Position numbers and translations under genes: made by a program
Part shown: one piece after another, positions 37,811 through 49,582 of the stretch
Layout: each line of letters starts with the position of its first letter
Position numbering within the stretch: position 1 is the stretch's first letter
Notes under the pieces: generated by a model
The model's database searches: none
The model's input: the letters and a program-made list of their open reading frames with translations, nothing else
Told to the model about the DNA's origin: nothing
From: Polyangiales bacterium
GTDB taxonomy: Bacteria; Myxococcota_A; Polyangia; Polyangiales; Ga0077539
DNA: 64,000 nucleotides
NCBI GenBank assembly: GCA_044229975.1
Contig: JBGARZ010000029.1
Coordinates: forward strand, 1 to 64,000
Direction: 5' to 3'

Positions 37811-37993
37811 TCAGGAGAACTGCTTGCGGAGCCAGCCCCAGAAGGACTTCACGGCCGACTTCACGACCCCCTTCACCATCTCCCCGAACCACTCGGCGAA
37901 CGCTGCCACGGCGTTGCGCTCAAGCTCCTCGCGGCGCTGCCGCTGCCGGGCACGCTCGCGCTCAAATCGCTCGCGCTCGTCGTCACTGCTCAT
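37811..37993 (-). CDS. 60-aa peptide with a charged N-half and an amphipathic C-terminal helix
   Basis: ATG overlaps the GTPase 3' end, with GGAGG upstream. Confidence 0.55.
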   Translation of the reverse strand: MSSDDERERFERERARQRQRREELERNAVAAFAEWFGEMVKGVVKSAVKSFWGWLRKQFS

Positions 37994-38759
37994 CGCGCAC
38001 CTCCGCCAAGTCCTCGAAGTTGATGAAGTTCGCCCGTTCTTGGATGAGCCACGCGCGGCTCCGGTCGCACGCCTGCTCGAGGCCGTAGAGCAACTCGGGG
38101 AGCCGGTACGCCCGTGTCGCGCTGTACCAGACGACGCGGTCCTCGGGCAGCTCCGCGATACGTGAGAGCTTCTCGCGAACGTCCCGGGTCCGCGCGACGA
38201 TCGTCGCCTCCTGTTCGGCATCGGGCATGTTGTACCGGCGCTTCCACGCGCCGGGCTGCGCGAGGTCGACCTGGTTGATCCCGACGACGAGGCGGCGCGG
38301 GTCGAGCGAGCCTGCGGCGACGAGATCTCGCAGGGAACGCTGTACGCCCGCGATCGCGCGCACGTCCGCCTTGAGGATCCACAGAGCGACGTCGCACTCC
38401 GGCAGCACGCGTCGGTACGTGTCGACGTGGGCCTCGTCCCGCTCGAGGTCCTCGCCGAGCCCGGGCATGTCGACCACGCGCAGCGCGCCGTCCTTCACGA
38501 GAAGCTCCGTTTCGATCTGGGTGCAGGAGCGGGTGTGGCTCACCTCCCGGCCGGCGTTGAACAGGGCGTTGATCGTCGAGGACTTGCCCACTCCGGTCTC
38601 GCCGATCACGGCGATCCTTGGGGGATCCCGGCATGTCGCGAGCACCTTGGCGCGCAGGGTGTCGAAGGCCTCCGGCGTGACTCCGGCACGCGCGAACTCG
38701 TCCGGCACGCCGGTGGCCTGCTCCAGCAGGCGAATGAATCGACGAATGGGTTCCAACAT
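37983..38759 (-). CDS. YeeP/YkfA-like (Era/MMR_HSR1-type) GTPase
   Basis: G1 GETGVGKS, G3 DMPG, G4 NQVD; RBS GGAGGAG. Confidence 0.85.
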   Translation of the reverse strand: MLEPIRRFIRLLEQATGVPDEFARAGVTPEAFDTLRAKVLATCRDPPRIAVIGETGVGKSSTINALFNAGREVSHTRSCTQIETELLVKDGALRVVDMPGLGEDLERDEAHVDTYRRVLPECDVALWILKADVRAIAGVQRSLRDLVAAGSLDPRRLVVGINQVDLAQPGAWKRRYNMPDAEQEATIVARTRDVREKLSRIAELPEDRVVWYSATRAYRLPELLYGLEQACDRSRAWLIQERANFINFEDLAEVRDEQ

Positions 38760-38968
38760 GCTTCTCCTCCGAGGGTGGGCGATCGACGGGCGGCCTGCGT
38801 GGCCTCCCGAGACTCGCCGATGGTGTGATTCGCGGGCGTAGGGACACCCGCTCGTGGTGCGAGGTTCGACGGTGCCGGGCCTCGTCCACTCGAAGGACGC
38901 GCGACCCCCTCGTGAGCTGACACGCCTTCGGCCGCATCTTCCTCGGCGCGGTGGTACCGTCGCCACCA

Positions 38969-40582
38969 ATGGGAGCTAAGGCGCCGTCGCGCGTCCTGTT
39001 GCAGTTCGCGGGCAACAAGCGGAACGACCCGAAGCACGGCGCGGAACGGCCCGGCGTGCGCGTCGCACGGATGGCGGAGCTCACGCCCCTCGCCCAAGTG
39101 TACGTCCTCGCGACCGCGGGGGACGGCGTGTCCTCGCAGCACGCGGACGAGCTCGCTGGGGAGCTGGGCAAGCACCGGCGCGGGGGCCTGAAGGTGTCGA
39201 CGCGTCCCCTCGGCGCAGGTCAGCCGCCCGACCCCACGTCGCGGGCGTCGGTCCGCGAGTCGTCCGTGCAACTGGTCGAAGCCTTCTCGGGCTCGGAGTT
39301 CGGTGCGCGCTTCAGCGAGACCGAGTTTCTCGTCTCGGCCGTGACCGGCACACCGGCCCAGTGGACCTCGCTTGTTGACGCGCTCGACGGGGCTGGCGCG
39401 CGCCTCGGCGTGGTGTGGGAGCGTCCCGATGGTTCCCTTGCCATCTGGCGGGTGCACGAGGGCGGCCGGAGCGTCGAGCCCGAGCTCGCTCTGCTGGATT
39501 GTGCGCCTGCCGCCTGGAATATTCTGCTTTCCGGGCCGACGGGGGCGGGCAAGTCAGAGGCAGCGCGGCGCCTTCACAATGCGTGGCAGCGGCATCTCCG
39601 CCGGGGCGAGGCCCTCGTCTCTGTCAACGCGGCCGCCATCCCGAGAGACCTCCTCGAGTCGACGCTGTTCGGGTACGAGAAGGGGGCCTTCACCGGCGCG
39701 ACGGAGTCGAAGCGCGGCGCCTTCCAGGAGGCCCAGGGCGGCACGCTGTTCCTTGACGAGGTCGGGGACCTGCCGTTCGACCAGCAGGTGCGCCTGCTGA
39801 CCGCGCTCGACCTCGGCCCGGACATGCGGCGCCGCGTCGTGCGCGTCGGCGCACGCGCGCAAGAGGCGGTCGACGTGCGGCTCATCCTCGGCACGAACCG
39901 CGATCTCTACGCGCTCGCGCGCGAGGGACGCTTTCGGCACGACCTCCTCGGGCGGATCTCGACCCATCAGGTGCAGCTCCCTCCGCTCGCGGAGGTGCGG
40001 CACCGCATTCCCGGCGCGTACCTCGACCAGCTCGAACGGCTCGCGGGCTTGTACCCCGTGCCGGTCCGCTTCACCTTCGACCGCGACGCGCGACTGCAAC
40101 TGCAGGAGTACATGTTCTCGGCCGAAAGCCGTTGGCCCTGGAACCACCGGGACGTGCTCCAGTCCGCCGAGCGCCTGGCGATGCGCGCGTGGGCCGACGG
40201 CCACGGACGCCGACCTGGGGTCGGAGCCGCGGGCGGCCGCGCGCCCCTTGCCTCGAACATCACCGCGCGCCACGTCGAGCGAGAACTCCGTGAGCTTCGC
40301 ACGCGGCACTCCTCACTCGGGGCCGACGGGCTTGAGGCGGGGTGGGCCGCGGTGGAGGCCAGCCTCCGCCCCGAGGCGTGGGAGCGGATGCCCGCGCTCG
40401 AGCGGTGGGAACTTCGCTACCTGCTCGAGGCGCGCACGGCCACCACGACGAAGGCCGACGCCTGGAGGTGGATCGCGGAGCGCAACCTCCTCGACGGGGC
40501 CCGCGACGAGGCGTCGATGAACAACCCGAGCAATGCCTTCGACAAGCGCTGGCGCCGCTACGCCGCGAGGCTCCGCGGATGA
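38969..40582 (+). CDS. Sigma54-dependent activator with an RtcR/CARF-like N-terminal domain
   Basis: GPTGAGKS, ESTLFGYEKGAFTGA, LFLDEVG, FRHDL, WPWNHRD; the N-terminal VTGTPAQ resembles the CARF motif. Confidence 0.85.
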   Translation: MGAKAPSRVLLQFAGNKRNDPKHGAERPGVRVARMAELTPLAQVYVLATAGDGVSSQHADELAGELGKHRRGGLKVSTRPLGAGQPPDPTSRASVRESSVQLVEAFSGSEFGARFSETEFLVSAVTGTPAQWTSLVDALDGAGARLGVVWERPDGSLAIWRVHEGGRSVEPELALLDCAPAAWNILLSGPTGAGKSEAARRLHNAWQRHLRRGEALVSVNAAAIPRDLLESTLFGYEKGAFTGATESKRGAFQEAQGGTLFLDEVGDLPFDQQVRLLTALDLGPDMRRRVVRVGARAQEAVDVRLILGTNRDLYALAREGRFRHDLLGRISTHQVQLPPLAEVRHRIPGAYLDQLERLAGLYPVPVRFTFDRDARLQLQEYMFSAESRWPWNHRDVLQSAERLAMRAWADGHGRRPGVGAAGGRAPLASNITARHVERELRELRTRHSSLGADGLEAGWAAVEASLRPEAWERMPALERWELRYLLEARTATTTKADAWRWIAERNLLDGARDEASMNNPSNAFDKRWRRYAARLRG

Positions 40583-41142
40583 GACGCGCCTAGCCGCCGA
40601 CGGGCCCGCGAGACGATCTGGTCGACGTTGGCGACGGTGGTGCCGTGGGCGCGCGCCACGGCCTCCCGGTCCTCGCCGAGGCCGACCGAGAACAGGATCG
40701 CGTGGTCGCGCGCCGGGAGCTGCGCGAGGGCGCGATGGGCATCGATCCGGAAGATCATCGCGTCCTCGACGCCTGCTCGGTCGATCACGGTTACTGGCCC
40801 TTCGTCGCGCTCGACCGGCGCGTCGCCGCGCCGGAGCCAGCTCCGCGCGCGGTTGTGCAGGGCGACCCGAAAGAGTGCGCGGGGGCGATCCGCGGCCAGC
40901 AGCTGTCGCAGGCTCGCGAGGAGCAGGTCGACCACGAGGTCGTCTCGGCGGTCGCAGTCGACCTCGCGATACGCGTCGAGCACGCACTCTCCCTCGAACA
41001 GGGCGAGCTCGTACAGGCGTCCCAGCCCTGGGCTCTCATAGGGCGACGGACTCGCGCGGATCTCCGTTGCGAGAGCCTTCCAGGCGTCCTGGGTGGACGC
41101 AGAGGGGAGTGGGCGCGAGTGGACGCGCGAAGACGCACGCAT
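40558..41142 (-). CDS. ECF-type sigma70 factor
   Basis: Region 2 LFRVALHNRARSWLRR; region 4 ALAQLPARDHAIL...EAVARAHGTTVANVDQIVSRARRRL. Confidence 0.7.
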   Translation of the reverse strand: MRASSRVHSRPLPSASTQDAWKALATEIRASPSPYESPGLGRLYELALFEGECVLDAYREVDCDRRDDLVVDLLLASLRQLLAADRPRALFRVALHNRARSWLRRGDAPVERDEGPVTVIDRAGVEDAMIFRIDAHRALAQLPARDHAILFSVGLGEDREAVARAHGTTVANVDQIVSRARRRLGASHPRSLAA

Positions 41143-41335
41143 GGGCGAGTAGCTTCCGGGGGTGTGCGGCGAGCTCGCCAAGCCGGGCCCGCACGGCCCG
41201 ACGAGCGTTCGCCAGTCGTTCCCGTCGCCTGCAGAGAGGATGCCGACGCGTGACGTCAGGAATCGCCGCGAGACGCGTCGGTTCTACCCGTAGCACCTCT
41301 CCAACAGGAGAGGACCAGGCGCGATTCGGTGATCC

Positions 41336-42955
41336 CTACCGAGGTGCCACGGCGCAGCGGAACCCGATGTACATGTCGCGCCCCTCGTCGTGCCGGTTCC
41401 AGGAGTGGCGCGGATAGGCTCCCAGCCACGGCTCTGGCGGAATCGGCGCACGCGTCATCCATTCGCCCGCGTGCGCGGGACCCAGGTCGAACGGCGCGGC
41501 CGGGAAGCCGTCCGCGACCCACTCCAACTCGCTTTGGTCCCGCCGCGTGTCCGCCATATCGCCGACGGTGCGGCGCCAGCGCTGAACCTCCACGGCCGCC
41601 GCGCCCTCGACCGCGCGCGCCGCAGCCTCCCACTCCGCAACCGTGGGAAGTCGGCCCTGCCACCGGTCGGCACAGTACGCCTCAGCTTCCTGGTGGAGCA
41701 CGCACGTGACTCGCTGTGCCTCCCCGCCCGACAGGCGCACGCAGCCCGACGTGGCGGCAAGCAGGGCGGGGCGGAACCGTCGAACCTCACCCACCGTCTC
41801 CGCGTGTTGCTCAAGGCAGAACGGGGCGACGGGGTAATGCGTCGTGCGCCCCGGATGAAGCGCGGTTCCCCAGCGCCGCGCCCCCTCGGGCCACGGTTGG
41901 AGCGCCACCTCGCGTGCGTTGTAGAGCACGAAGCCGACCGGGCAGGTCGGCGTGGGAGCCGCCGTCGCGTCCATCTGCGCCCCGGCCGCGTCCAGGGTCA
42001 CGATCGTGAGAGGGAGCGTCGTCGCGTCGGCGGCGCGCGGTCCTTCGGCGTGGGGAGGTGCTCCGGTGGCGTCGGGCGGGGTGGTTCCAACGAGCGGCGC
42101 AGGGGCGCCGCGGAGGGTCAGGGCCAGACCGATCCCCGTGATGAGTCCGACCACCGCCGCGGCGAGCGTCACGACGCGGGACACGGGACCGCTCGCGGTG
42201 GGCGCGGCGGACGTACGGGGGGCCTGCGCCTCGTGCAGGCGTCGCTCAAGGAGGTCGATGCGGGCGTGCGCCTCGTTGCGAGCCTGGGCAAGGGCGGCAG
42301 CCTGCGTGTGAGTCTCCTGGAGAGCGCGCTCCTGGTCGGCGAGACGGGCGCGCGCCTCGTCGCGCTCCTGGCGTAGCGTGTACTCCCACTTGGTGTACTC
42401 GGCCTTGCGAGCGTCTGTCTCGCGCCGCAACTCTTCGATCGCGCGTTGGCTTGCGCTCGTCACTCGATGTGAGCGGTCGCGCATCGCATCGAGCAGGCGG
42501 AGGGTCTCGTGCGGCATCGGCACGTTGAGGAAGCCGTAGAACCAGGCCACGATACGGGAGAGGCCGCGCGCGACGTCGACGGCGTTCTCCTCGTGGTCCA
42601 CGAACTCGAGCTGGTAGTGAGTGGCAGTGTTGCCGAAGCCATGCACGATGTCGACGACGTTGAAGATGTCCTTGCTGATCGGGCTGCTCGGAGTCTCGCG
42701 CTTGAGCTTCTCGTGGCGCACATACGTGTCGACGGTCGGGTTGCGCAGCGACGCGACGCTCTGCGGGGAGTGCTTTGTGAGGATCCCGAGCAGGACGACC
42801 TCGAGGCAGCGTCGCGCGCGCCACGCGAAGACGACCGGGTTGTCCCAGCGTGCCTGCGCGCAGAGATCGAGCTCGGTGACGAGGTCTGCCAGGAGCTGAT
42901 CGAGGCCGTCCGCGGGTAGGGGCGGCTCTTGTTCGGGAGGGGTCCGGTCGGTCAT
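41336..42955 (-). CDS. DUF4145/HEPN-like domain, coiled coil, TM helix and FGE-sulfatase (SUMF1) domain
   Basis: ARRCLE...HGFGNTATH; one TM helix; C-terminal EAEAYC...RLPTVAEWEAAAR...EWVAD...IGFRCA. Confidence 0.75.
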   Translation of the reverse strand: MTDRTPPEQEPPLPADGLDQLLADLVTELDLCAQARWDNPVVFAWRARRCLEVVLLGILTKHSPQSVASLRNPTVDTYVRHEKLKRETPSSPISKDIFNVVDIVHGFGNTATHYQLEFVDHEENAVDVARGLSRIVAWFYGFLNVPMPHETLRLLDAMRDRSHRVTSASQRAIEELRRETDARKAEYTKWEYTLRQERDEARARLADQERALQETHTQAAALAQARNEAHARIDLLERRLHEAQAPRTSAAPTASGPVSRVVTLAAAVVGLITGIGLALTLRGAPAPLVGTTPPDATGAPPHAEGPRAADATTLPLTIVTLDAAGAQMDATAAPTPTCPVGFVLYNAREVALQPWPEGARRWGTALHPGRTTHYPVAPFCLEQHAETVGEVRRFRPALLAATSGCVRLSGGEAQRVTCVLHQEAEAYCADRWQGRLPTVAEWEAAARAVEGAAAVEVQRWRRTVGDMADTRRDQSELEWVADGFPAAPFDLGPAHAGEWMTRAPIPPEPWLGAYPRHSWNRHDEGRDMYIGFRCAVAPR

Positions 42956-43066: not shown

Positions 43067-43657
43067 TCAGCCCACGCGGGCGAACGGGTCGAGGCGGTCG
43101 AGGAGGGCCACGAGCTGATCGGCCTGCGCCAGCGCGTCGTCGCCGGCATGGTGAGGGCGTAGCCCCGGTCGCGTCGGCACCGGCCCTCCGACGGCGCGGG
43201 CGAGGGCGTCGACGTTGCTGCCCGTGCGCCAGGATCCCCCGTGCAGTCCCCAGATCGCGGCCTTGAGGTCGAGGGGCACGTGGTGGAACGGGTTCGTCAC
43301 GCCCGCGGCGCCGAGTGCGTGCAGGACGAACGCCCAGTCGAACGCCGCGTTGTAGCCCGCGAACACGAGCCGACCAGGGCCCGCGGTGGCCGCCCAATCG
43401 GCGAAGGCGGTGGCCGCCCGTGCAGGGGCGTTCCCTCGTGCGCGGAGCCGGGCGAGGTCGAGCCCGTGGATCCGCGTGGCCGCGCGATCCTCTTCGGCTC
43501 CCTCCGGGGGCGCCCACTCGTCGTAATACTCAGCGCCCGTCTGCCAGCGCGCGCCAACCCGGCGGACCACGACCGCGCCGACCGACAGGAGCGCGTGGCG
43601 TCCCGGAAAGGGACCGGAGGTCTCGCAGTCCACGCTGATGAAGATGTCCTCGCTCAT
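43067..43657 (-). CDS. DEDDh 3'-5' exonuclease (Cap18-like)
   Basis: DCE, NAAFD, HHAGDDA; RBS AAGGAG; divergent from the CD-NTase. Confidence 0.88.
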   Translation of the reverse strand: MSEDIFISVDCETSGPFPGRHALLSVGAVVVRRVGARWQTGAEYYDEWAPPEGAEEDRAATRIHGLDLARLRARGNAPARAATAFADWAATAGPGRLVFAGYNAAFDWAFVLHALGAAGVTNPFHHVPLDLKAAIWGLHGGSWRTGSNVDALARAVGGPVPTRPGLRPHHAGDDALAQADQLVALLDRLDPFARVG

Positions 43658-44055
43658 GGCACGACTCCTTATGGGTGTGGGTACGCCGAGGGCGTCGCTC
43701 CGCTTCCAATGCTAGCCGTCGTGGAGTCGTCGGCGCGGCCGACCTTCACGTCGTGTCGGTGACCGGCGAGGGACACTCTCCTCCCTTCGACGGAGTTGCG
43801 CTCCCGCGGTGGAGTCGGTCCCGGACGAAGTCCGCCTGAACCGGTGTTCCGACTCCTCGGAACTTCGCTCGGTCGGGCTCGCCGTTGGAGCAACGACGGT
43901 GCGGTTCCGACGCCGAAGATCCCCGTGGATCGCAGGCCGGGCGAGGTCGGCTGATGAAATGACGATTCGCTGTCAGGAAGAGCCACGCCCAGGAGTCCAT
44001 GGGGGGAACGAGGGCGCGCGACGCCTTCCCAGCGCGGAACTGCGAGGCGGAGAGC

Positions 44056-45057
44056 ATGACGATCAAGGAGCGTTTCGGCCGCTTCACGCGGCAAATCCGG
44101 CCGACCGAAGGGCACATCGACGAGGCCAACCGTCAGACGGCTTACATGATCGAGCGGCTGCACGACGTCGTGGCGGACTCGGAGCGGTTCAAGCTCGAGA
44201 AGGTCTTGAAGGCGGGCTCGAACGCCAAGTTCACGTCGCTGCGTAGGACCCGGGAGAACGTCTTCGACGTCGACCTCGGCGCCTACTACTCCGGCGAAGG
44301 GGCGCGCCGTGAGGACCTCGACAGACTGCTCGACTTCACCTGCCGCCAGCTCCGGAAGATCTACGGCGACACGAAGGACGCGAGCGACTTCGAGGTGATG
44401 AAGAGCGCCGTGCGCGTGCGCTTCCGCAGCGGCATCAAGCTCAACGTCGACGTGGCGCCCATCATCCGCGACGGCGCCCTCGGTCTGACCAACGGGGGCT
44501 GGATCCCACGCAAGGACGGCTGGCGGCTCACCTCGGTGACCTGTCACGTCGACTTCATCCGCAACCGCTCCGCGCGGGCCAATCAGCTCGCCGGGCCGGT
44601 CCACTTCAACCGCCTCGTGCGGCTCGTGAAGTGGTGGAACAACCTCCAGGGCGACGCTGCCCACCCCTCGATCGTCTGCGACCTCCTCACGGCGGCGGCG
44701 TTCGACGCAGTTGGCGTTACCGGGGAGTGGCAGACGAGCCTGCGCAACGTGTTCGGCTTCCTCCGCAAGCACGGCCTCCGCGAGCCCGTGGTTTTCGGCG
44801 ACCACTACGACGCCTCGGCGGTGTCCCTCCCGGCGGCCCCCGTGGTGATTCTCGACCCCGTCAACCGCGAGAACAACGTCGCCTCGACCTGGACGGCGGC
44901 CACGCGTGCCGACTTCCTGGGGCGGGTGCAGGAGGCCTACGACCGCATGATGGAGGCGCGGAGCCACGAGCTCGACGGCGACGAGGAAGCCGCCGTCGAT
45001 GCGTGGTGCGAGGTGTTCGGGGAGGCCTTCCGAGAGCTGTCGGAACCGGCGGAGTAG
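44056..45057 (+). CDS. CBASS cGAS/DncV-like nucleotidyltransferase (CD-NTase)
   Basis: AGSNAKFTSL, DVD, VDVAP, LVRLVKWW, ILDPVNRENNV. Confidence 0.92.
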   Translation: MTIKERFGRFTRQIRPTEGHIDEANRQTAYMIERLHDVVADSERFKLEKVLKAGSNAKFTSLRRTRENVFDVDLGAYYSGEGARREDLDRLLDFTCRQLRKIYGDTKDASDFEVMKSAVRVRFRSGIKLNVDVAPIIRDGALGLTNGGWIPRKDGWRLTSVTCHVDFIRNRSARANQLAGPVHFNRLVRLVKWWNNLQGDAAHPSIVCDLLTAAAFDAVGVTGEWQTSLRNVFGFLRKHGLREPVVFGDHYDASAVSLPAAPVVILDPVNRENNVASTWTAATRADFLGRVQEAYDRMMEARSHELDGDEEAAVDAWCEVFGEAFRELSEPAE

Positions 45058-45066
45058 GGGGCGGCC

Positions 45067-45582
45067 ATGACGATGACACTGACGCGCACGGGCGCCGCCA
45101 CAACGACGTACGAGCGGATCGAGTACGTGACCCGAAAGGTACGCGCCGACCTGTTCGCGATCGTCGACAGCTACCGCTACTTCGACGAGCGTCGCGCGAC
45201 GAACCTCATCGCCGATGTGCGGACCTTCCTCGACGAGGAGGTGCTCGACCGCGTGCAGTTCGTCTGGCTCCGGCGCGGCACGCAGGTCGTTCTGGAAGAG
45301 TTCCGCTACGTCGTCCTGGCGGATGGTAGCGGTTGCGTCGACGCGCGTTCGGGAGGGGTCCCCTACCGCCCCGAGCTCGCGTCGGCGGACTTCCGCGTCC
45401 AGGTGACCTACAGCGACCGCTGGACGCGATTGTCCGACGCCGAGCGCGAGGCGATCCGCAAGCGGCTCGTGCTCTCGTGGGGGCCGGCAGGAAGGCTCGA
45501 CTACGCCGGGGGGAGCTGGGTGACCGACCGGGCGTACGCGAAGGACGGGTACGCCCTCGAACGAAAGCAGTTCACGCGATGA
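45067..45582 (+). CDS. cap7: Bacterial HORMA-domain protein (Cap7-like)
   Basis: Thr-rich N-tail, KVRADL, C-terminal DRAYAKDGYALERKQF resembling CBASS HORMA1; sits between the CD-NTase and the AAA+ gene. Confidence 0.85.
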   Translation: MTMTLTRTGAATTTYERIEYVTRKVRADLFAIVDSYRYFDERRATNLIADVRTFLDEEVLDRVQFVWLRRGTQVVLEEFRYVVLADGSGCVDARSGGVPYRPELASADFRVQVTYSDRWTRLSDAEREAIRKRLVLSWGPAGRLDYAGGSWVTDRAYAKDGYALERKQFTR

Positions 45583-46856
45583 AGCACGATATCCCCATCG
45601 AACTCTACGACTCGCAGGGGCGCAGCGCGGGTGCGCTCCCCGTCAACGCGACCGAGCTTGCGCGCGAGGCCGAGGCCCTGGCGCGCTCGGAGGACCTCGC
45701 GAAGCGCACGGCCCTCGAGCGCGTCCTCCGCAAACACCTCCAGACCGCGAAGTGCGAGGCCGACGCGGCTGAACTCACGGGGGCGGTCGACGCCCTCGAC
45801 GCGGTCCGGAAGGGTGACGGGCCCAGCCGGATCCAGATCAACGTGCGCCCCTCCGGGCGTCAGGGCCACGCGCGGCGGGCCCACGCGGAGGGGGGCCGCC
45901 CGGGCGCGCCTCCAGGGCGGGCGCCAGCGCCCTCAGCGCAGAGGCCCGCGGGCGCGTCGTTCTTCGAACTCGAGCGCGAGTACCCCGACGAGGAGGCCCG
46001 CGCCTGGTATGGCCGGCTCGTCGGGCTAGACGAGCACAAGCAGCGGCTCCTGACCGAACTCGAGATCCTGCTCTTCCCCGAGCGGCTCGAGCGGTGGAGC
46101 GTCGCCCACCACGAAACCGTCCTGCAAGCGTGCGCCCTCTACCGCAACCGCGTGCCACTCGTGGTCCTCCACGGCGACGTCGGCACGGGCAAGACGGCGC
46201 TCGCGGAGACGGTGGGCGACGCGCTCGCGCGCCGCGTCGACGGACGCGTGCACCTGCTCAAGGTCAACACCCAGGTCCGGGGCACCGGCCTCGTCGGCGA
46301 GATGAGCGACCTGATCGCGCAGGCGTTCGCGCAGGCCGTGGCGCGCGCCGAGGCCGCGCCGACGGAGCCGGTGCTCCTGCTCATCGACGAAGCCGACGCG
46401 CTCGCGTCGAGTCGTGAGGGACAGCAGATGCACCACGAGGACAAGGCGGGCATCAACACGCTGCTCCAGCGCCTCGACAACCTCCGGCTCCTGCGCCTGC
46501 CGATCGCTGCGCTCTTCGTCACCAACCGCCCCGAGGCGCTGGACCCGGCGGTGCGCCGCCGCGCCGCGCTCGACCTCTCCTTCGACCGTCCCAACGACGA
46601 CGCCCGTGCCGCGCTCTTCCGCACCGCCGTCCCCGAGCTGCGCCTCTCGCGCGAGCAGCTGGCCCGTCTGGTCCGGATGACCGGCACGGAGCGGGAGGGG
46701 GGCGACGGGGTGCCGTTCACCGCCTCCGACGTGACCGACCGGCTGCTGCCGACGGCCTTGCGCACGGCCTACGTGGGCGAGCGCACGCTTACCGTCGAGG
46801 ACCTCCTCCAGGCCGCCGCCGCGCTGACCCCCTCCCCGCGCTGCGGCACGCGATGA
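45579..46856 (+). CDS. cap6: TRIP13/Pch2-like AAA+ ATPase (Cap6-like)
   Basis: GDVGTGKT, LLIDEADALA, QMHHEDKAGINTLLQRLD, TNRPEALDPAVRRRAA; ATGA overlap with the HORMA gene. Confidence 0.9.
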   Translation: MKHDIPIELYDSQGRSAGALPVNATELAREAEALARSEDLAKRTALERVLRKHLQTAKCEADAAELTGAVDALDAVRKGDGPSRIQINVRPSGRQGHARRAHAEGGRPGAPPGRAPAPSAQRPAGASFFELEREYPDEEARAWYGRLVGLDEHKQRLLTELEILLFPERLERWSVAHHETVLQACALYRNRVPLVVLHGDVGTGKTALAETVGDALARRVDGRVHLLKVNTQVRGTGLVGEMSDLIAQAFAQAVARAEAAPTEPVLLLIDEADALASSREGQQMHHEDKAGINTLLQRLDNLRLLRLPIAALFVTNRPEALDPAVRRRAALDLSFDRPNDDARAALFRTAVPELRLSREQLARLVRMTGTEREGGDGVPFTASDVTDRLLPTALRTAYVGERTLTVEDLLQAAAALTPSPRCGTR

Positions 46857-46869
46857 GCCGCGCGAAAGG

Positions 46870-48666
46870 ATGACCGCCATGCCGGAAGAAATGACCGTCG
46901 AAGGGTACATCCTGGTTGCCCAACCCGTGCACCAACCGATCGCGGATGCGGCGATGGTGCAGGCGATGCCCGAGGCGCACGGGCGGCTGCCCTACCACAT
47001 CGCGACGATCGAGGCGGCCCTGGTGCCGATGACGGCGGCAGGGGTGATCGACTGGCCCGGGGCTCGGCGCGAAGTCGAGCGCGGCTACCACGACCGCCTG
47101 CGCCCGCTCATCAAGCGCCACCCGGCGCACCGACTTGCGTACTTCGGCACCGCGCCCGTCCCGCTCGCGATGCATCTGGGGTACCTGGTCGGGAGCTGGG
47201 TCCCGAGCGACATCTACCAGCTGCACCACCGCGACAAGGTGTGGGCGTGGCGCGAGCCCGCGTCCGACGCCCCCGCGGCGGTGCTGCGCCCGGTGAACCT
47301 GCCCCAGGACGTCGTCCGCGCCGAAGGGGACGTCGTGATCCGGGTGTCGACCTCGAACCGCATCGACCCGGCCGACACGACCGCCGTGGTGCGCGAGCCG
47401 CTGGCCGAGATCGACATCGCCCTGGAGGTCACGGACTTCGACGCGCTAGCCACGCCCGCGGACGTCGAGCGCGTGGCCATGGAGTTCGTTCGGGCGCTCG
47501 ACGCCATCGCCGAGAAGCGCCCCGGCACCCGGGTCGTCCACGTATTCGCGGCGGTGCCCGTGGGGCTCGCTTTCCGGCTCGGCACCTGCGTGAGCGCCAC
47601 GAAGCACCCGCGCGTCCAGACCTACCAGTACGTGCGCACCGCGGACCCCCACTACCACCCCGCGCTCACGCTGCAGGAGGAGGTCGGCGGTGGTCGCCCG
47701 CCGACCGTCGCCGAGCAGGAGCGCGCGGCAGTCCTGCGCGAGACCTGGGCGTCGGAACTTCAGCTCCTGAGAGATTTCGCGCTCCAGATGCAGGACCAGT
47801 CGGCGGCCTCGCCAGGTACCGGGTGGCTGCGTCGCGCCATCCCCCACGAGCCGGACGCCGAGGCGGACTTCTGCGGCCGCTGGCGCACGCTCCCCGCGCT
47901 CTACGAGACGCCCCTCGCTCAGAGCGAGGTGGACCGTGCAGCGCGGAGCGCGCCGGGCGGGTTCGAGTTCGACACGCGCAGCCGACGCTGGGTTTTCGAC
48001 GACGGCCTGTTGGCGCGCATCGCGGTGCGCCTGACGGGGGACGACGCTCGGCGCGCGGGACGGATGTTCCTCCTACACGAGGGGGTGCACCTGCGCACCC
48101 ACCGCCTGACGACGCCGACGAGCGCGCGGATCGGGCGGTTCCCAAAGCTCGTCGAGGAGGTCGACTACCAGGCGGACGTCTGGACGATGCTCCACGACTA
48201 CGCCTTCACGCGCGCCCGCGACCGGGCCGCGACGGACAATGCCCGCCTTTTCTTCCTGCGGACGATCGACACCGCCCTCCAGACGTTCTGGGCCTTCGAC
48301 GACGAGGGGGTCGCGCTGCGCGAGATCCAGATGCGTCGGCTCAACCGCTACCTCCTCTGGTACTGGCAGCAACTGCGGATTGAACACGCGGAGGGTCTGC
48401 GCGACGTCCTGCGGATCCTTTCGGAGAGGCCGATCCTGGAGCTCGCGGGCCCTGCGGTCGTCGCCCGTGAGGAGCGGGTCTTCTACGCGCTCGACCCGCG
48501 GCGGGTCGCGAGCCCCGAACTCGGGGTGCTCGCCGGCAACGCCATCGCGCGGTTCGGGCAGAGCCCAGGCGTGCGGCTCGGCGATCTGATCGAGGGCTTC
48601 CGGGCGAGGGACGGCGAGCTTGTGAAGGATGCGCTACGGGGGGCCTTCGACCAGCTACCCCGGTAG
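46870..48666 (+). CDS. SAVED domain fused to an HExxH metallopeptidase-like domain (CBASS effector)
   Basis: SAVED motifs YFGTAPVPLAMHLG, YQLHH...WAW, VHVFAAVPVGLAFRLG; C-terminal half has LLHEGVH (48076-48090) and EEVDYQAD. Confidence 0.85.
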   Translation: MTAMPEEMTVEGYILVAQPVHQPIADAAMVQAMPEAHGRLPYHIATIEAALVPMTAAGVIDWPGARREVERGYHDRLRPLIKRHPAHRLAYFGTAPVPLAMHLGYLVGSWVPSDIYQLHHRDKVWAWREPASDAPAAVLRPVNLPQDVVRAEGDVVIRVSTSNRIDPADTTAVVREPLAEIDIALEVTDFDALATPADVERVAMEFVRALDAIAEKRPGTRVVHVFAAVPVGLAFRLGTCVSATKHPRVQTYQYVRTADPHYHPALTLQEEVGGGRPPTVAEQERAAVLRETWASELQLLRDFALQMQDQSAASPGTGWLRRAIPHEPDAEADFCGRWRTLPALYETPLAQSEVDRAARSAPGGFEFDTRSRRWVFDDGLLARIAVRLTGDDARRAGRMFLLHEGVHLRTHRLTTPTSARIGRFPKLVEEVDYQADVWTMLHDYAFTRARDRAATDNARLFFLRTIDTALQTFWAFDDEGVALREIQMRRLNRYLLWYWQQLRIEHAEGLRDVLRILSERPILELAGPAVVAREERVFYALDPRRVASPELGVLAGNAIARFGQSPGVRLGDLIEGFRARDGELVKDALRGAFDQLPR

Positions 48667-48703
48667 CGCTGGGTGACAGCGGCAACGTACGAAAGGAGCG
48701 ACG

Positions 48704-49582
48704 ATGGCACGAGGGGATCATATCTGGGTGCAGCGCCCGGGCTACCAGCACCACGGGATCGACGAGGGCGATGGGTTCGTCATCCACTTCACGGGTGTCG
48801 ATAGGACCAAGGAACTCGCCGAGGTCCGCCGGACGCCGATCGCAGAATTCGGCGCGGAGGCCGACATCCTTGTCCAACAGTACGATCCGGGGGCCGTCTT
48901 CGAGCCCGACGTGGTGGTCGCGAATGCGGCGAACCAGATCGGCAAGCGCGACTACCATCTCCTGACCAACAACTGCGAGGTGCTCGCGAAGTGGGCGAAG
49001 ACCGGCGACGCGAGCAGCGCGCAGGTGCTCCGTGTGCTGAACGCGGGATTGGGCGCCAGCGCCATGGTGGCGGGCGCTGCGGCGGCGATCAGCCTCGCCG
49101 GAGCCGCTGGCATGACCGGCGTCTACGGCGGCGCGCTGCTCATGTCGGGGCTCGCGGAGGTCGGGGGCGGTAGCGCCGTGGTGGGGACGGCGGTCCTCGG
49201 CGCGGTGCCCACCGCCGCGGCGATCTATGTCTTTCAACTCGCGATGCGGGACGACTTCACCCAGACGCCGCAAGAACGTCACGCGAGAAAGGTCGCGCGC
49301 GGCGTGGCCATCGGTGCGGGGGTCGGCTCCGTCGCGCTGGCCGTCCTGGCGCTCTACTTCGCGGGGAGGCGCGGGCTCAGTGCGGCCGACATCACCTCCG
49401 GGCTCAACGCCATCGGCACGGTGGTCGGAGGCGGCATGGGTGCCGGGGTCGGCGTCCTCGGCGTCGGAATGTCGCTCGCTTCGGTCTCGGCGGGATGGCT
49501 CGCCTACAAGCAGGCGGGTGGAGACCAGCCGATGCCACGGCTCGTCGGACTCCAGGACATGAGTCCGTCCAGCGTCGGTTGA
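48704..49582 (+). CDS. LRAT-like (permuted NlpC/P60) enzyme with C-terminal hydrophobic Gly/Ala-rich helices
   Basis: GDHI...YQHHGI...VIHF...YHLLTNNCE; RBS AAGGAG. Confidence 0.88.
   Translation: MARGDHIWVQRPGYQHHGIDEGDGFVIHFTGVDRTKELAEVRRTPIAEFGAEADILVQQYDPGAVFEPDVVVANAANQIGKRDYHLLTNNCEVLAKWAKTGDASSAQVLRVLNAGLGASAMVAGAAAAISLAGAAGMTGVYGGALLMSGLAEVGGGSAVVGTAVLGAVPTAAAIYVFQLAMRDDFTQTPQERHARKVARGVAIGAGVGSVALAVLALYFAGRRGLSAADITSGLNAIGTVVGGGMGAGVGVLGVGMSLASVSAGWLAYKQAGGDQPMPRLVGLQDMSPSSVG

Follow-up and report, generated by a model that had tools for sequence, protein, structure and literature searches.

What is a gene for a predicted LRAT/PLAAT lipid enzyme doing directly behind a type III CBASS operon? 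The question comes from the window, i.e., the whole 64,000-nucleotide stretch of DNA analyzed here, in which the gene for this protein (P0001) follows four same-strand genes encoding a CD-NTase, a HORMA protein, a TRIP13-like ATPase, and a SAVED-peptidase (Table 1). An earlier note, made from the sequence alone, had described it as the fifth gene of the operon, which is true of its position; its start, 37 bp past the SAVED stop, had also been read exactly, and the ribosome-binding site there is AAAGGAG, 5 nt ahead of the ATG. The upstream genes form a type III CBASS operon with CD-NTase, HORMA, TRIP13, and effector all present according to Pfam, PADLOC, and NCBIfam. Its SAVED-peptidase effector, whose nearest named relatives are found in Sorangium and Polyangiaceae and point to a probable myxobacterial host, already has a PADLOC model of its own. 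We found no consensus promoter or plus-strand terminator between positions 43500 and 50100, a negative result of little weight given the high GC content of the genome. No RNA data set was listed that contains the cassette. Downstream of the LRAT gene, after 324 bp, lie a helicase and a type I restriction-modification system. P0001 is the sole LRAT detected in its genome.

Table 1. Features of the window in and around the LRAT gene; residue numbers refer to P0001
Feature	Position	Strand	Basis or remark
Divergent DEDDh exonuclease, PADLOC CBASS 'Exonuclease' type	43067..43657	-	PDLC00753, E 7.2e-31
CD-NTase cyclase	44056..45057	+	NCBIfam CBASS_cyclase_a, E 8.5e-86; alternative in-frame ATG at 43999
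Bacterial HORMA protein	45067..45582	+	Pfam bacHORMA_1, E 1.3e-34
TRIP13-like AAA+ ATPase	45579..46856	+	PADLOC PDLC00914, E 3.5e-102
SAVED-HExxH CBASS effector, 598 aa	46870..48666	+	Pfam SAVED; PADLOC PDLC00754 Peptidase, E 1.7e-171
Shine-Dalgarno-like AAAGGAG	48692..48698	+	5 nt 5' of ATG, within the 37-bp gap
LRAT/PLAAT-like protein P0001 with duplicated Gly-rich membrane domain, 292 aa	48704..49582	+	ORF call
Catalytic LRAT domain, residues 2-103 (H16, H28, Y84, N90-C91-E92)	48707..49012	+	Pfam PF04970, E 1.7e-20; invariant columns; PLAAT2 alignment
Gly-rich hydrophobic repeat 1, residues ~112-182	49037..49249	+	Repeat-1 profile test
Charged linker DDxxxxxxERxARxxAR, residues 183-199 (D184, E191, R195, R199 conserved)	49250..49300	+	Family alignment
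Gly-rich hydrophobic repeat 2, residues ~198-272, homologous to BnzA segment	49295..49519	+	Profile comparisons
Right edge of shared cassette, where matching to the 98%-identical strain's contig ends	49558..49559		Contig continues, dissimilar

Other features of the surroundings are recorded here for completeness. The window TRIP13 (425 aa) has ~120 extra N-terminal residues ahead of its PADLOC match, most homologous loci encoding a protein of 290-300 aa. To the left of the CBASS genes (37811-42955), a small GTPase is accompanied by a charged partner of 136 aa, and the same stretch encodes a divergently oriented sigma-54 activator, an ECF-like sigma factor, and a protein with an FGE-sulfatase domain. 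The same genome has a second CBASS, consisting of a cyclase and a 4TM effector (L269; G000:C29:111421-114909).

The assignment of P0001 to the LRAT/PLAAT family stands. The Pfam LRAT model (PF04970) scores 74 bits against a curated cut-off of 24.3; no other Pfam family matched, nor did any PADLOC or NCBIfam model. A homologue search returned 119 proteins, and the 73 with the whole architecture (query included, one HD-domain fusion omitted) were aligned. Residues H16, H28, Y84, N90, C91, and E92 are invariant in 73/73 members, so the His/His/NCE catalytic residues that the earlier note regarded as intact are indeed so. The order of H16, H28, and C91 aligns with that of PLAAT2 and is the permuted one, defined as a His and a polar residue ahead of the NCE cysteine in the accessible part of PMC3142127. 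In an AlphaFold2 model of P0001 (mean pLDDT 83.6), the catalytic domain is predicted to have the PLAAT fold: all six Foldseek matches at E ≤ 0.001 are human PLAAT2/3/4 (E 1e-4 to 7e-4), and a VIA comparison with PLAAT4 gave Z 14.2 with an rmsd of 2.1 over 101 residues. A membrane-acting enzyme, as had been proposed, is the likely (predicted) activity. Tied with PLAAT4 as the top structural match is a chain (E7) of 8iuf, the respiratory supercomplex of Euglena, with Z 14.3 and an rmsd of 3.5 over 170 residues. A homotrimer prediction, with a score of 0.00, speaks neither for nor against such an assembly.

The window lineage has changes of its own with the triad kept, namely NNCEV and Ala98, together with G229D in P0001 and P0003, and at 20 sites that are otherwise well conserved P0001 does not follow the consensus of the family. 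Ala98 occupies the position, seven residues past the catalytic cysteine, of the second cysteine of LRAT proper, and 66 of the 73 family members have a Cys there. This second cysteine does not define PLAATs, since PLAAT2 also does not have it.

Residues 109-275 of P0001 are 47% Gly, Ala, and Ser, with seven GxxxG motifs and four to five hydrophobic segments, which bears out the description of long Gly-zipper-like hydrophobic helices. The tail is duplicated internally, since a profile built on repeat 1 scored a median of 69.7 bits on the real repeat 2 versus 26.2 bits on shuffled sequence. It is as conserved as the enzyme domain (mean modal frequency 0.64 versus 0.67). In the AlphaFold2 model, the catalytic domain leads straight into a predicted helix (residues 106-136), and nothing falls below a pLDDT of 50, residues 111-140 being at 54-57. 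With the whole model as query, a fold search returned generic helical bundles for the Gly domain (Z ≤ 8.5), and an ESM Atlas search with residues 105-275 gave a best score of 0.85, a lead at most.

Profile comparisons tie the repeat to the defence system Bunzi. The family and Bunzi BnzA have a common repeat motif, GxxGLSAAGITSGLAxxGxxxGGGMxAG. One family member (L088) matches the BnzA model at E 9e-7; a direct match was obtained in one of six full-length members scanned, P0001 itself having none. Small BnzA-matching proteins that adjoin BnzB-like genes (L229, L230, L231, and L235) contain a single copy of the repeat. The family profile aligned to L229 at 98.3% (hhalign), well above reversed or locally shuffled controls, and repeat 2 scored 43-53 bits on all four versus ≤16 for local shuffles. 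These four loci are minimal Bunzi-like pairs on viral contigs, each with a 165-195 aa single-repeat protein without a TerB match and a BnzB-like gene. In P0001, Pfam detected no TerB domain, and none of the 13 window proteins scanned matched BnzB. A 113-aa Gly-rich gene upstream of the LRAT in L246 had no significant match to the repeat. Dionysus may be a relative.

Close strains show that the gene is maintained and moves with the cassette. A 4007-bp contig of a 98%-identical strain (run X1) matches positions 45943-49558 apart from 69 differences and continues into unlike sequence; short joints that skipped parts of the operon were ignored, either having sides of <30 bases or skipping short stretches. 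The departure comes right after the LRAT gene, at 49558, which indicates that LRAT travels with CBASS rather than with the helicase. In this lineage, the gene can be counted in the CBASS cassette as the earlier note had it, the contig spanning TRIP13, SAVED, and LRAT. The LRAT gene is under purifying selection: of its changes between the two strains, 17 are synonymous and 6 are not (pN/pS 0.12, P 2e-6). In more distant kin, three pairs of LRAT and SAVED clusters (72%/81% identity) lie on equal-sized contigs of 10747, 6971, and 29585 bases, which suggests that the two genes are adjacent there too.

To see which neighbors the gene has elsewhere, we collected family loci from metagenomes (the best 80 of 540 confirmed) and from genomes sampled within the same phylum, order, and class. 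With the window excluded, 36 loci encode both domains (29 metagenome loci, among those best 80 of 540 matches, and 7 genome loci), and the 12 with at least 10 kb of DNA were counted, the 24 shorter ones being left out. A multi-gene defence system was taken as two or more genes side by side that match one PADLOC system at E ≤ 1e-25, a rule fixed after the first loci had been seen; the counts rest on gene calls made in this analysis, with some small ORFs unscanned and kin treated as independent. Such a system is present in 6/12 long loci (L132, L191, L097, L247, L245, and L246). Among random 16-kb windows of this genome alone (20 drawn, one overlapping window dropped), it is present in 1/19 (Fisher P 0.007), or in 2/19 if the island-like L264 is counted (P 0.03). 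LRATs without the Gly domain had a system in 0/11 long loci (Fisher P 0.014; 11 of 19 candidates were within the size limit).

The six systems are diverse. In L191, LRAT is the first gene of a CBASS operon, its stop abutting the ATG of an HNH-SAVED gene (0 bp), followed by a cyclase and an E2; a capH-like HTH gene and a gene for an HExxH protein are divergent. From the layout in the accessible part of bioRxiv 2022.04.27.489752, we read this HExxH protein, which has no model match, as capP. In L132, LRAT is 233 bp upstream of a CBASS cyclase on the same strand, with an E2 and a patatin next and a retron-type RT 6 kb off. Neither of these two operons has a protease effector, the effectors being a patatin and an HNH-SAVED nuclease. 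In L097, LRAT is on the same strand ~750 bp upstream of cas6 in a type III-A CRISPR locus whose Cas10 has GGDD, whereas in L247 it is convergent with type III-D CRISPR; BREX (L245) and Septu (L246) are near LRAT in the other two. No multi-gene system was found in the remaining six (L093, L096, L103, L108, L118, and L192), and the LRATs of L118 and L192 are among housekeeping-type genes. Integrases and transposases are common LRAT neighbors (L096, L099, L103, L107, and L132).

Some of these loci have further content. In L191 (9355-14674), the CBASS operon is preceded by a type II restriction pair and followed by EVE-ATPase and DUF2357 nuclease genes, which we take to be McrBC-like, and Nmad2. 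In L103 (4460-11126), genes for an OGG glycosylase, a PfkB-NDT fusion, QueC, a radical SAM protein, and a patatin lie near the LRAT+Gly gene and an integrase fragment, with no cyclase within the locus. In L193 (8100-10184; G146), a type I restriction operon includes an LRAT fusion of 695 aa that has no Gly domain; its neighbors in the operon are hsdR on one side and a YgjP-like peptidase on the other. The architecture is a different one again in many more distant LRATs (P0077-P0105), which are fusions to PspA/IM30 (PF04012).

The family is patchy, with 7 of the 401 genomes in the order sample matching at E ≤ 1e-20, one of them partially. Plasmids gave 34 N-terminal matches, phages 2, and viral contigs 31 loci, none of them with a full-length relative, and a further 331 genomes of the family to which G206 belongs yielded no new locus. 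The best reading is of a mobile family that is recruited into defence operons. A stand-alone gene fits the data, because the partners differ between loci, and P0001 can credibly be considered a candidate single-gene defence lipase of a new kind. With modest confidence, we therefore favor the view that the gene encodes a predicted inner-membrane LRAT/PLAAT phospholipase A/acyltransferase, here at the end of a type III CBASS cassette, which is likely to be a self-contained anti-phage factor and is likely not activated by the SAVED protease.

Among the alternatives, the one that survives best, though we consider it rather unlikely, is that P0001 serves cyclic-oligonucleotide immunity (CBASS and type III CRISPR) as an accessory, dedicated to it but optional. 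It would then be a second effector, directed at the membrane, and would be co-induced with the operon or activated downstream of the signal through a route other than cleavage by SAVED-HExxH. This alternative is favored because the four tightest same-strand placements (the window, L191, L132, and L097) all adjoin cyclic-oligonucleotide systems; CBASS or type III CRISPR also accounts for 4/6 of the system-positive loci in the unbiased set, and the accessible part of PMC12825302 has an LRAT-like hydrolase adjoining CARF effectors in a type III-B locus. In the best tree (32 rows), the three CBASS-side lineages (window clade, L132, and L191) share one side of a branch, but its support is 41/74, 44% of the bootstrap trees recover it, and each of the three lineages is a long branch (1.05 for that of the window). 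By BLAST, each is nearer to non-CBASS members than to the other two. Against this alternative, P0001 has no known nucleotide-sensor domain (Pfam) and no PADLOC effector match, and cyclase clades and effectors vary between loci, with BREX and Septu as further neighbors. The convergent arrangement in L247 also argues against it, and the 233-bp gap in L132 could contain the CBASS promoter.

We regard as improbable a role outside immunity, e.g., in lipid remodeling or envelope-stress repair, with the gene being mobile cargo that gathers in the integration hotspots where defence genes also collect. The enrichment in neighborhoods may reflect mobility alone, since integrases and transposases are common neighbors; half of the long loci show no defence system, the family is patchy, and the PspA/IM30 fusions of other bacterial LRATs would suit such a role. 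However, the LRAT gene heads a capH-type CBASS operon with no gap in L191, it is kept with the cassette in close strains, and its membrane repeat is related to BnzA. These three observations speak against a cargo role.

The wiring proposed in the earlier note fared worst. In the form weighed here, a cyclic signal would cause SAVED-HExxH to cut the LRAT protein and release or activate the lipase, in a partnership limited to this lineage. The arrangement in the window invites this idea, with the two genes adjacent on one strand 37 bp apart, their linkage probably retained in the 72%/81% kin, and the LRAT lineage on a long branch with its own motif changes; SAVED-protease cascades also exist (CalpL-CalpT and SAVED-CHAT, in the accessible part of PMC11229360). 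Synteny across SAVED-HExxH loci had been named beforehand as a check, absence from homologous operons together with dispensability for defence being what would refute the idea. Of 90 confirmed loci in GTDB, the best 80 were fetched by alignment; 72 have both domains, including 64 with at least 1 kb downstream and 33 of type III (30 of the 64). Neither LRAT nor the Gly domain occurs at any of the 72, and the 30 type III loci with at least 1 kb downstream give 0/30 for LRAT, i.e., the gene is not conserved in homologous operons as a CBASS core effector would be. No full LRAT+Gly protein was found in the 50 whole genomes with SAVED-HExxH, one partial LRAT being on a different contig. Conversely, no SAVED-HExxH gene turned up in the metagenome LRAT loci, of which the best 80 of 540 confirmed were examined, and the CBASS carriers L132 and L191 have patatin or nuclease effectors. 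At least 95 of 96 SAVED-HExxH proteins retain H403-E404-H407 and E429, so the protease (an activity that we assume from the motif and the PADLOC label) persists widely without the LRAT gene. The predicted structure also speaks against the cascade, with the domain running directly into the helix at 106-136 and no segment below a pLDDT of 50, though 111-140 is at only 54-57. Cleavage of the tail would more likely disarm the enzyme, because PLAAT3 needs its hydrophobic tail for recruitment to damaged membranes (accessible part of PMC9338259). We reject the protease-substrate pairing, for which 72 loci and 50 whole genomes offer no synteny, and consider the cascade highly improbable. The gene, family, and cassette had been named correctly, and the wiring was probably wrong.

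Other SAVED-HExxH loci also show no recurring substrate gene behind the protease, which on its own could favor a cascade. No non-core gene follows it directly in more than three loci, the recurring follower being a cyclase, and no recurring neighboring substrate emerges in the 64 loci with enough downstream DNA (among the best 80 of 90 confirmed). In named myxobacterial genomes (L008-L010, L021, L026, L027, L029, and L034), a recurring gene of 1,000-1,250 aa (cluster 7) precedes SAVED-HExxH, which there usually stands before a different cyclase clade, without HORMA/TRIP13. The cluster 7 loci are a better place for seeking a protease substrate.

Returning to the self-contained factor, we propose phage-triggered, protease-independent lipid hydrolysis, by analogy with the recruitment of PLAAT3 through its tail and the hydrolysis of PG and PE in bacteria by a permuted NlpC/P60 toxin. 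The catalytic domain would face the cytoplasm, no signal peptide being evident by eye, and the two Gly-rich hairpins would hold the enzyme at the membrane. By analogy with PLAAT3, which is recruited to damaged membranes, and with the antibacterial phospholipase Tox-Act1, a membrane disturbance caused by phage would engage the hairpins. Phospholipids would then be split into lysolipids and fatty acids, and the membrane or a phage-made compartment would be breached and the infection aborted. The position in the CBASS operon would provide co-expression, not biochemical dependence. A bolder version, which we put forward tentatively, makes P0001 the bacterial counterpart of PLAAT3/PLAAT4: Bunzi-type Gly hairpins would sense the membrane breach at phage entry, and the Cys phospholipase would then destroy the membrane or phage vesicle, and the family would have been recruited repeatedly as a second effector to CBASS and type III CRISPR operons. 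If true, this would be a new lipase class in bacterial immunity, parallel to an animal antimicrobial enzyme family.

In the openly accessible literature, we found no anti-phage role for LRAT/PLAAT proteins. LRAT beside defence genes is mentioned in passing in the accessible parts of PMC12825302 and PMC12409351; a test of such a gene appears in none of the accessible portions of these two papers, PMC11229360, PMC12994826, PMC3142127, PMC9338259, bioRxiv 2022.04.27.489752, and 2025.09.30.679545. The family may already be listed in supplementary tables of large defence screens.

How, then, does P0001 compare with known systems? We consider five. CapV is a patatin phospholipase and the CBASS lipase effector; like it, P0001 has a predicted phospholipid-hydrolyzing, membrane-damaging output in a CBASS setting, but the fold is unrelated, the chemistry is that of a Cys triad, and P0001 is not the sole effector of its operon (L132 carries both genes). 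With Bunzi BnzA (PADLOC PDLC03833), the family has the Gly-rich repeat in common, whereas it has an LRAT domain in place of TerB, two repeats, and, for P0001 itself, no BnzA score and no BnzB among the 13 window proteins scanned. CalpL-CalpT-CalpS and SAVED-CHAT (accessible part of PMC11229360) resemble the window in having a SAVED-protease with an adjacent gene; the window protease differs in its HExxH metallopeptidase-like domain, and the adjacent LRAT co-occurs with it in one lineage only. Tox-Act1 and TseH are permuted NlpC/P60 antibacterial T6SS phospholipases that, according to the accessible part of PMC12994826, can hydrolyze PG and PE and damage bacterial membranes. They belong to the same superfamily branch as P0001 but form separate clades and are secreted toxins with immunity genes, whereas P0001 is predicted to be anchored in the membrane, and we saw neither a secretion gene nor an immunity gene with it. 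Human PLAAT2/3/4 (HRASLS family), LRAT, and the PF04970 family resemble P0001 in fold, His-His-NCE order, and a C-terminal hydrophobic region. Unlike the human PLAATs, with their one putative TM segment, P0001 is bacterial, is found in defence islands, and has as its tail a 160-residue duplicated Gly-rich domain with four to five hydrophobic segments; its enzymatic output is predicted. If the family protects against phage, it would be a new single-gene defence enzyme in which a human-type lipase is joined to a membrane module shared with Bunzi.
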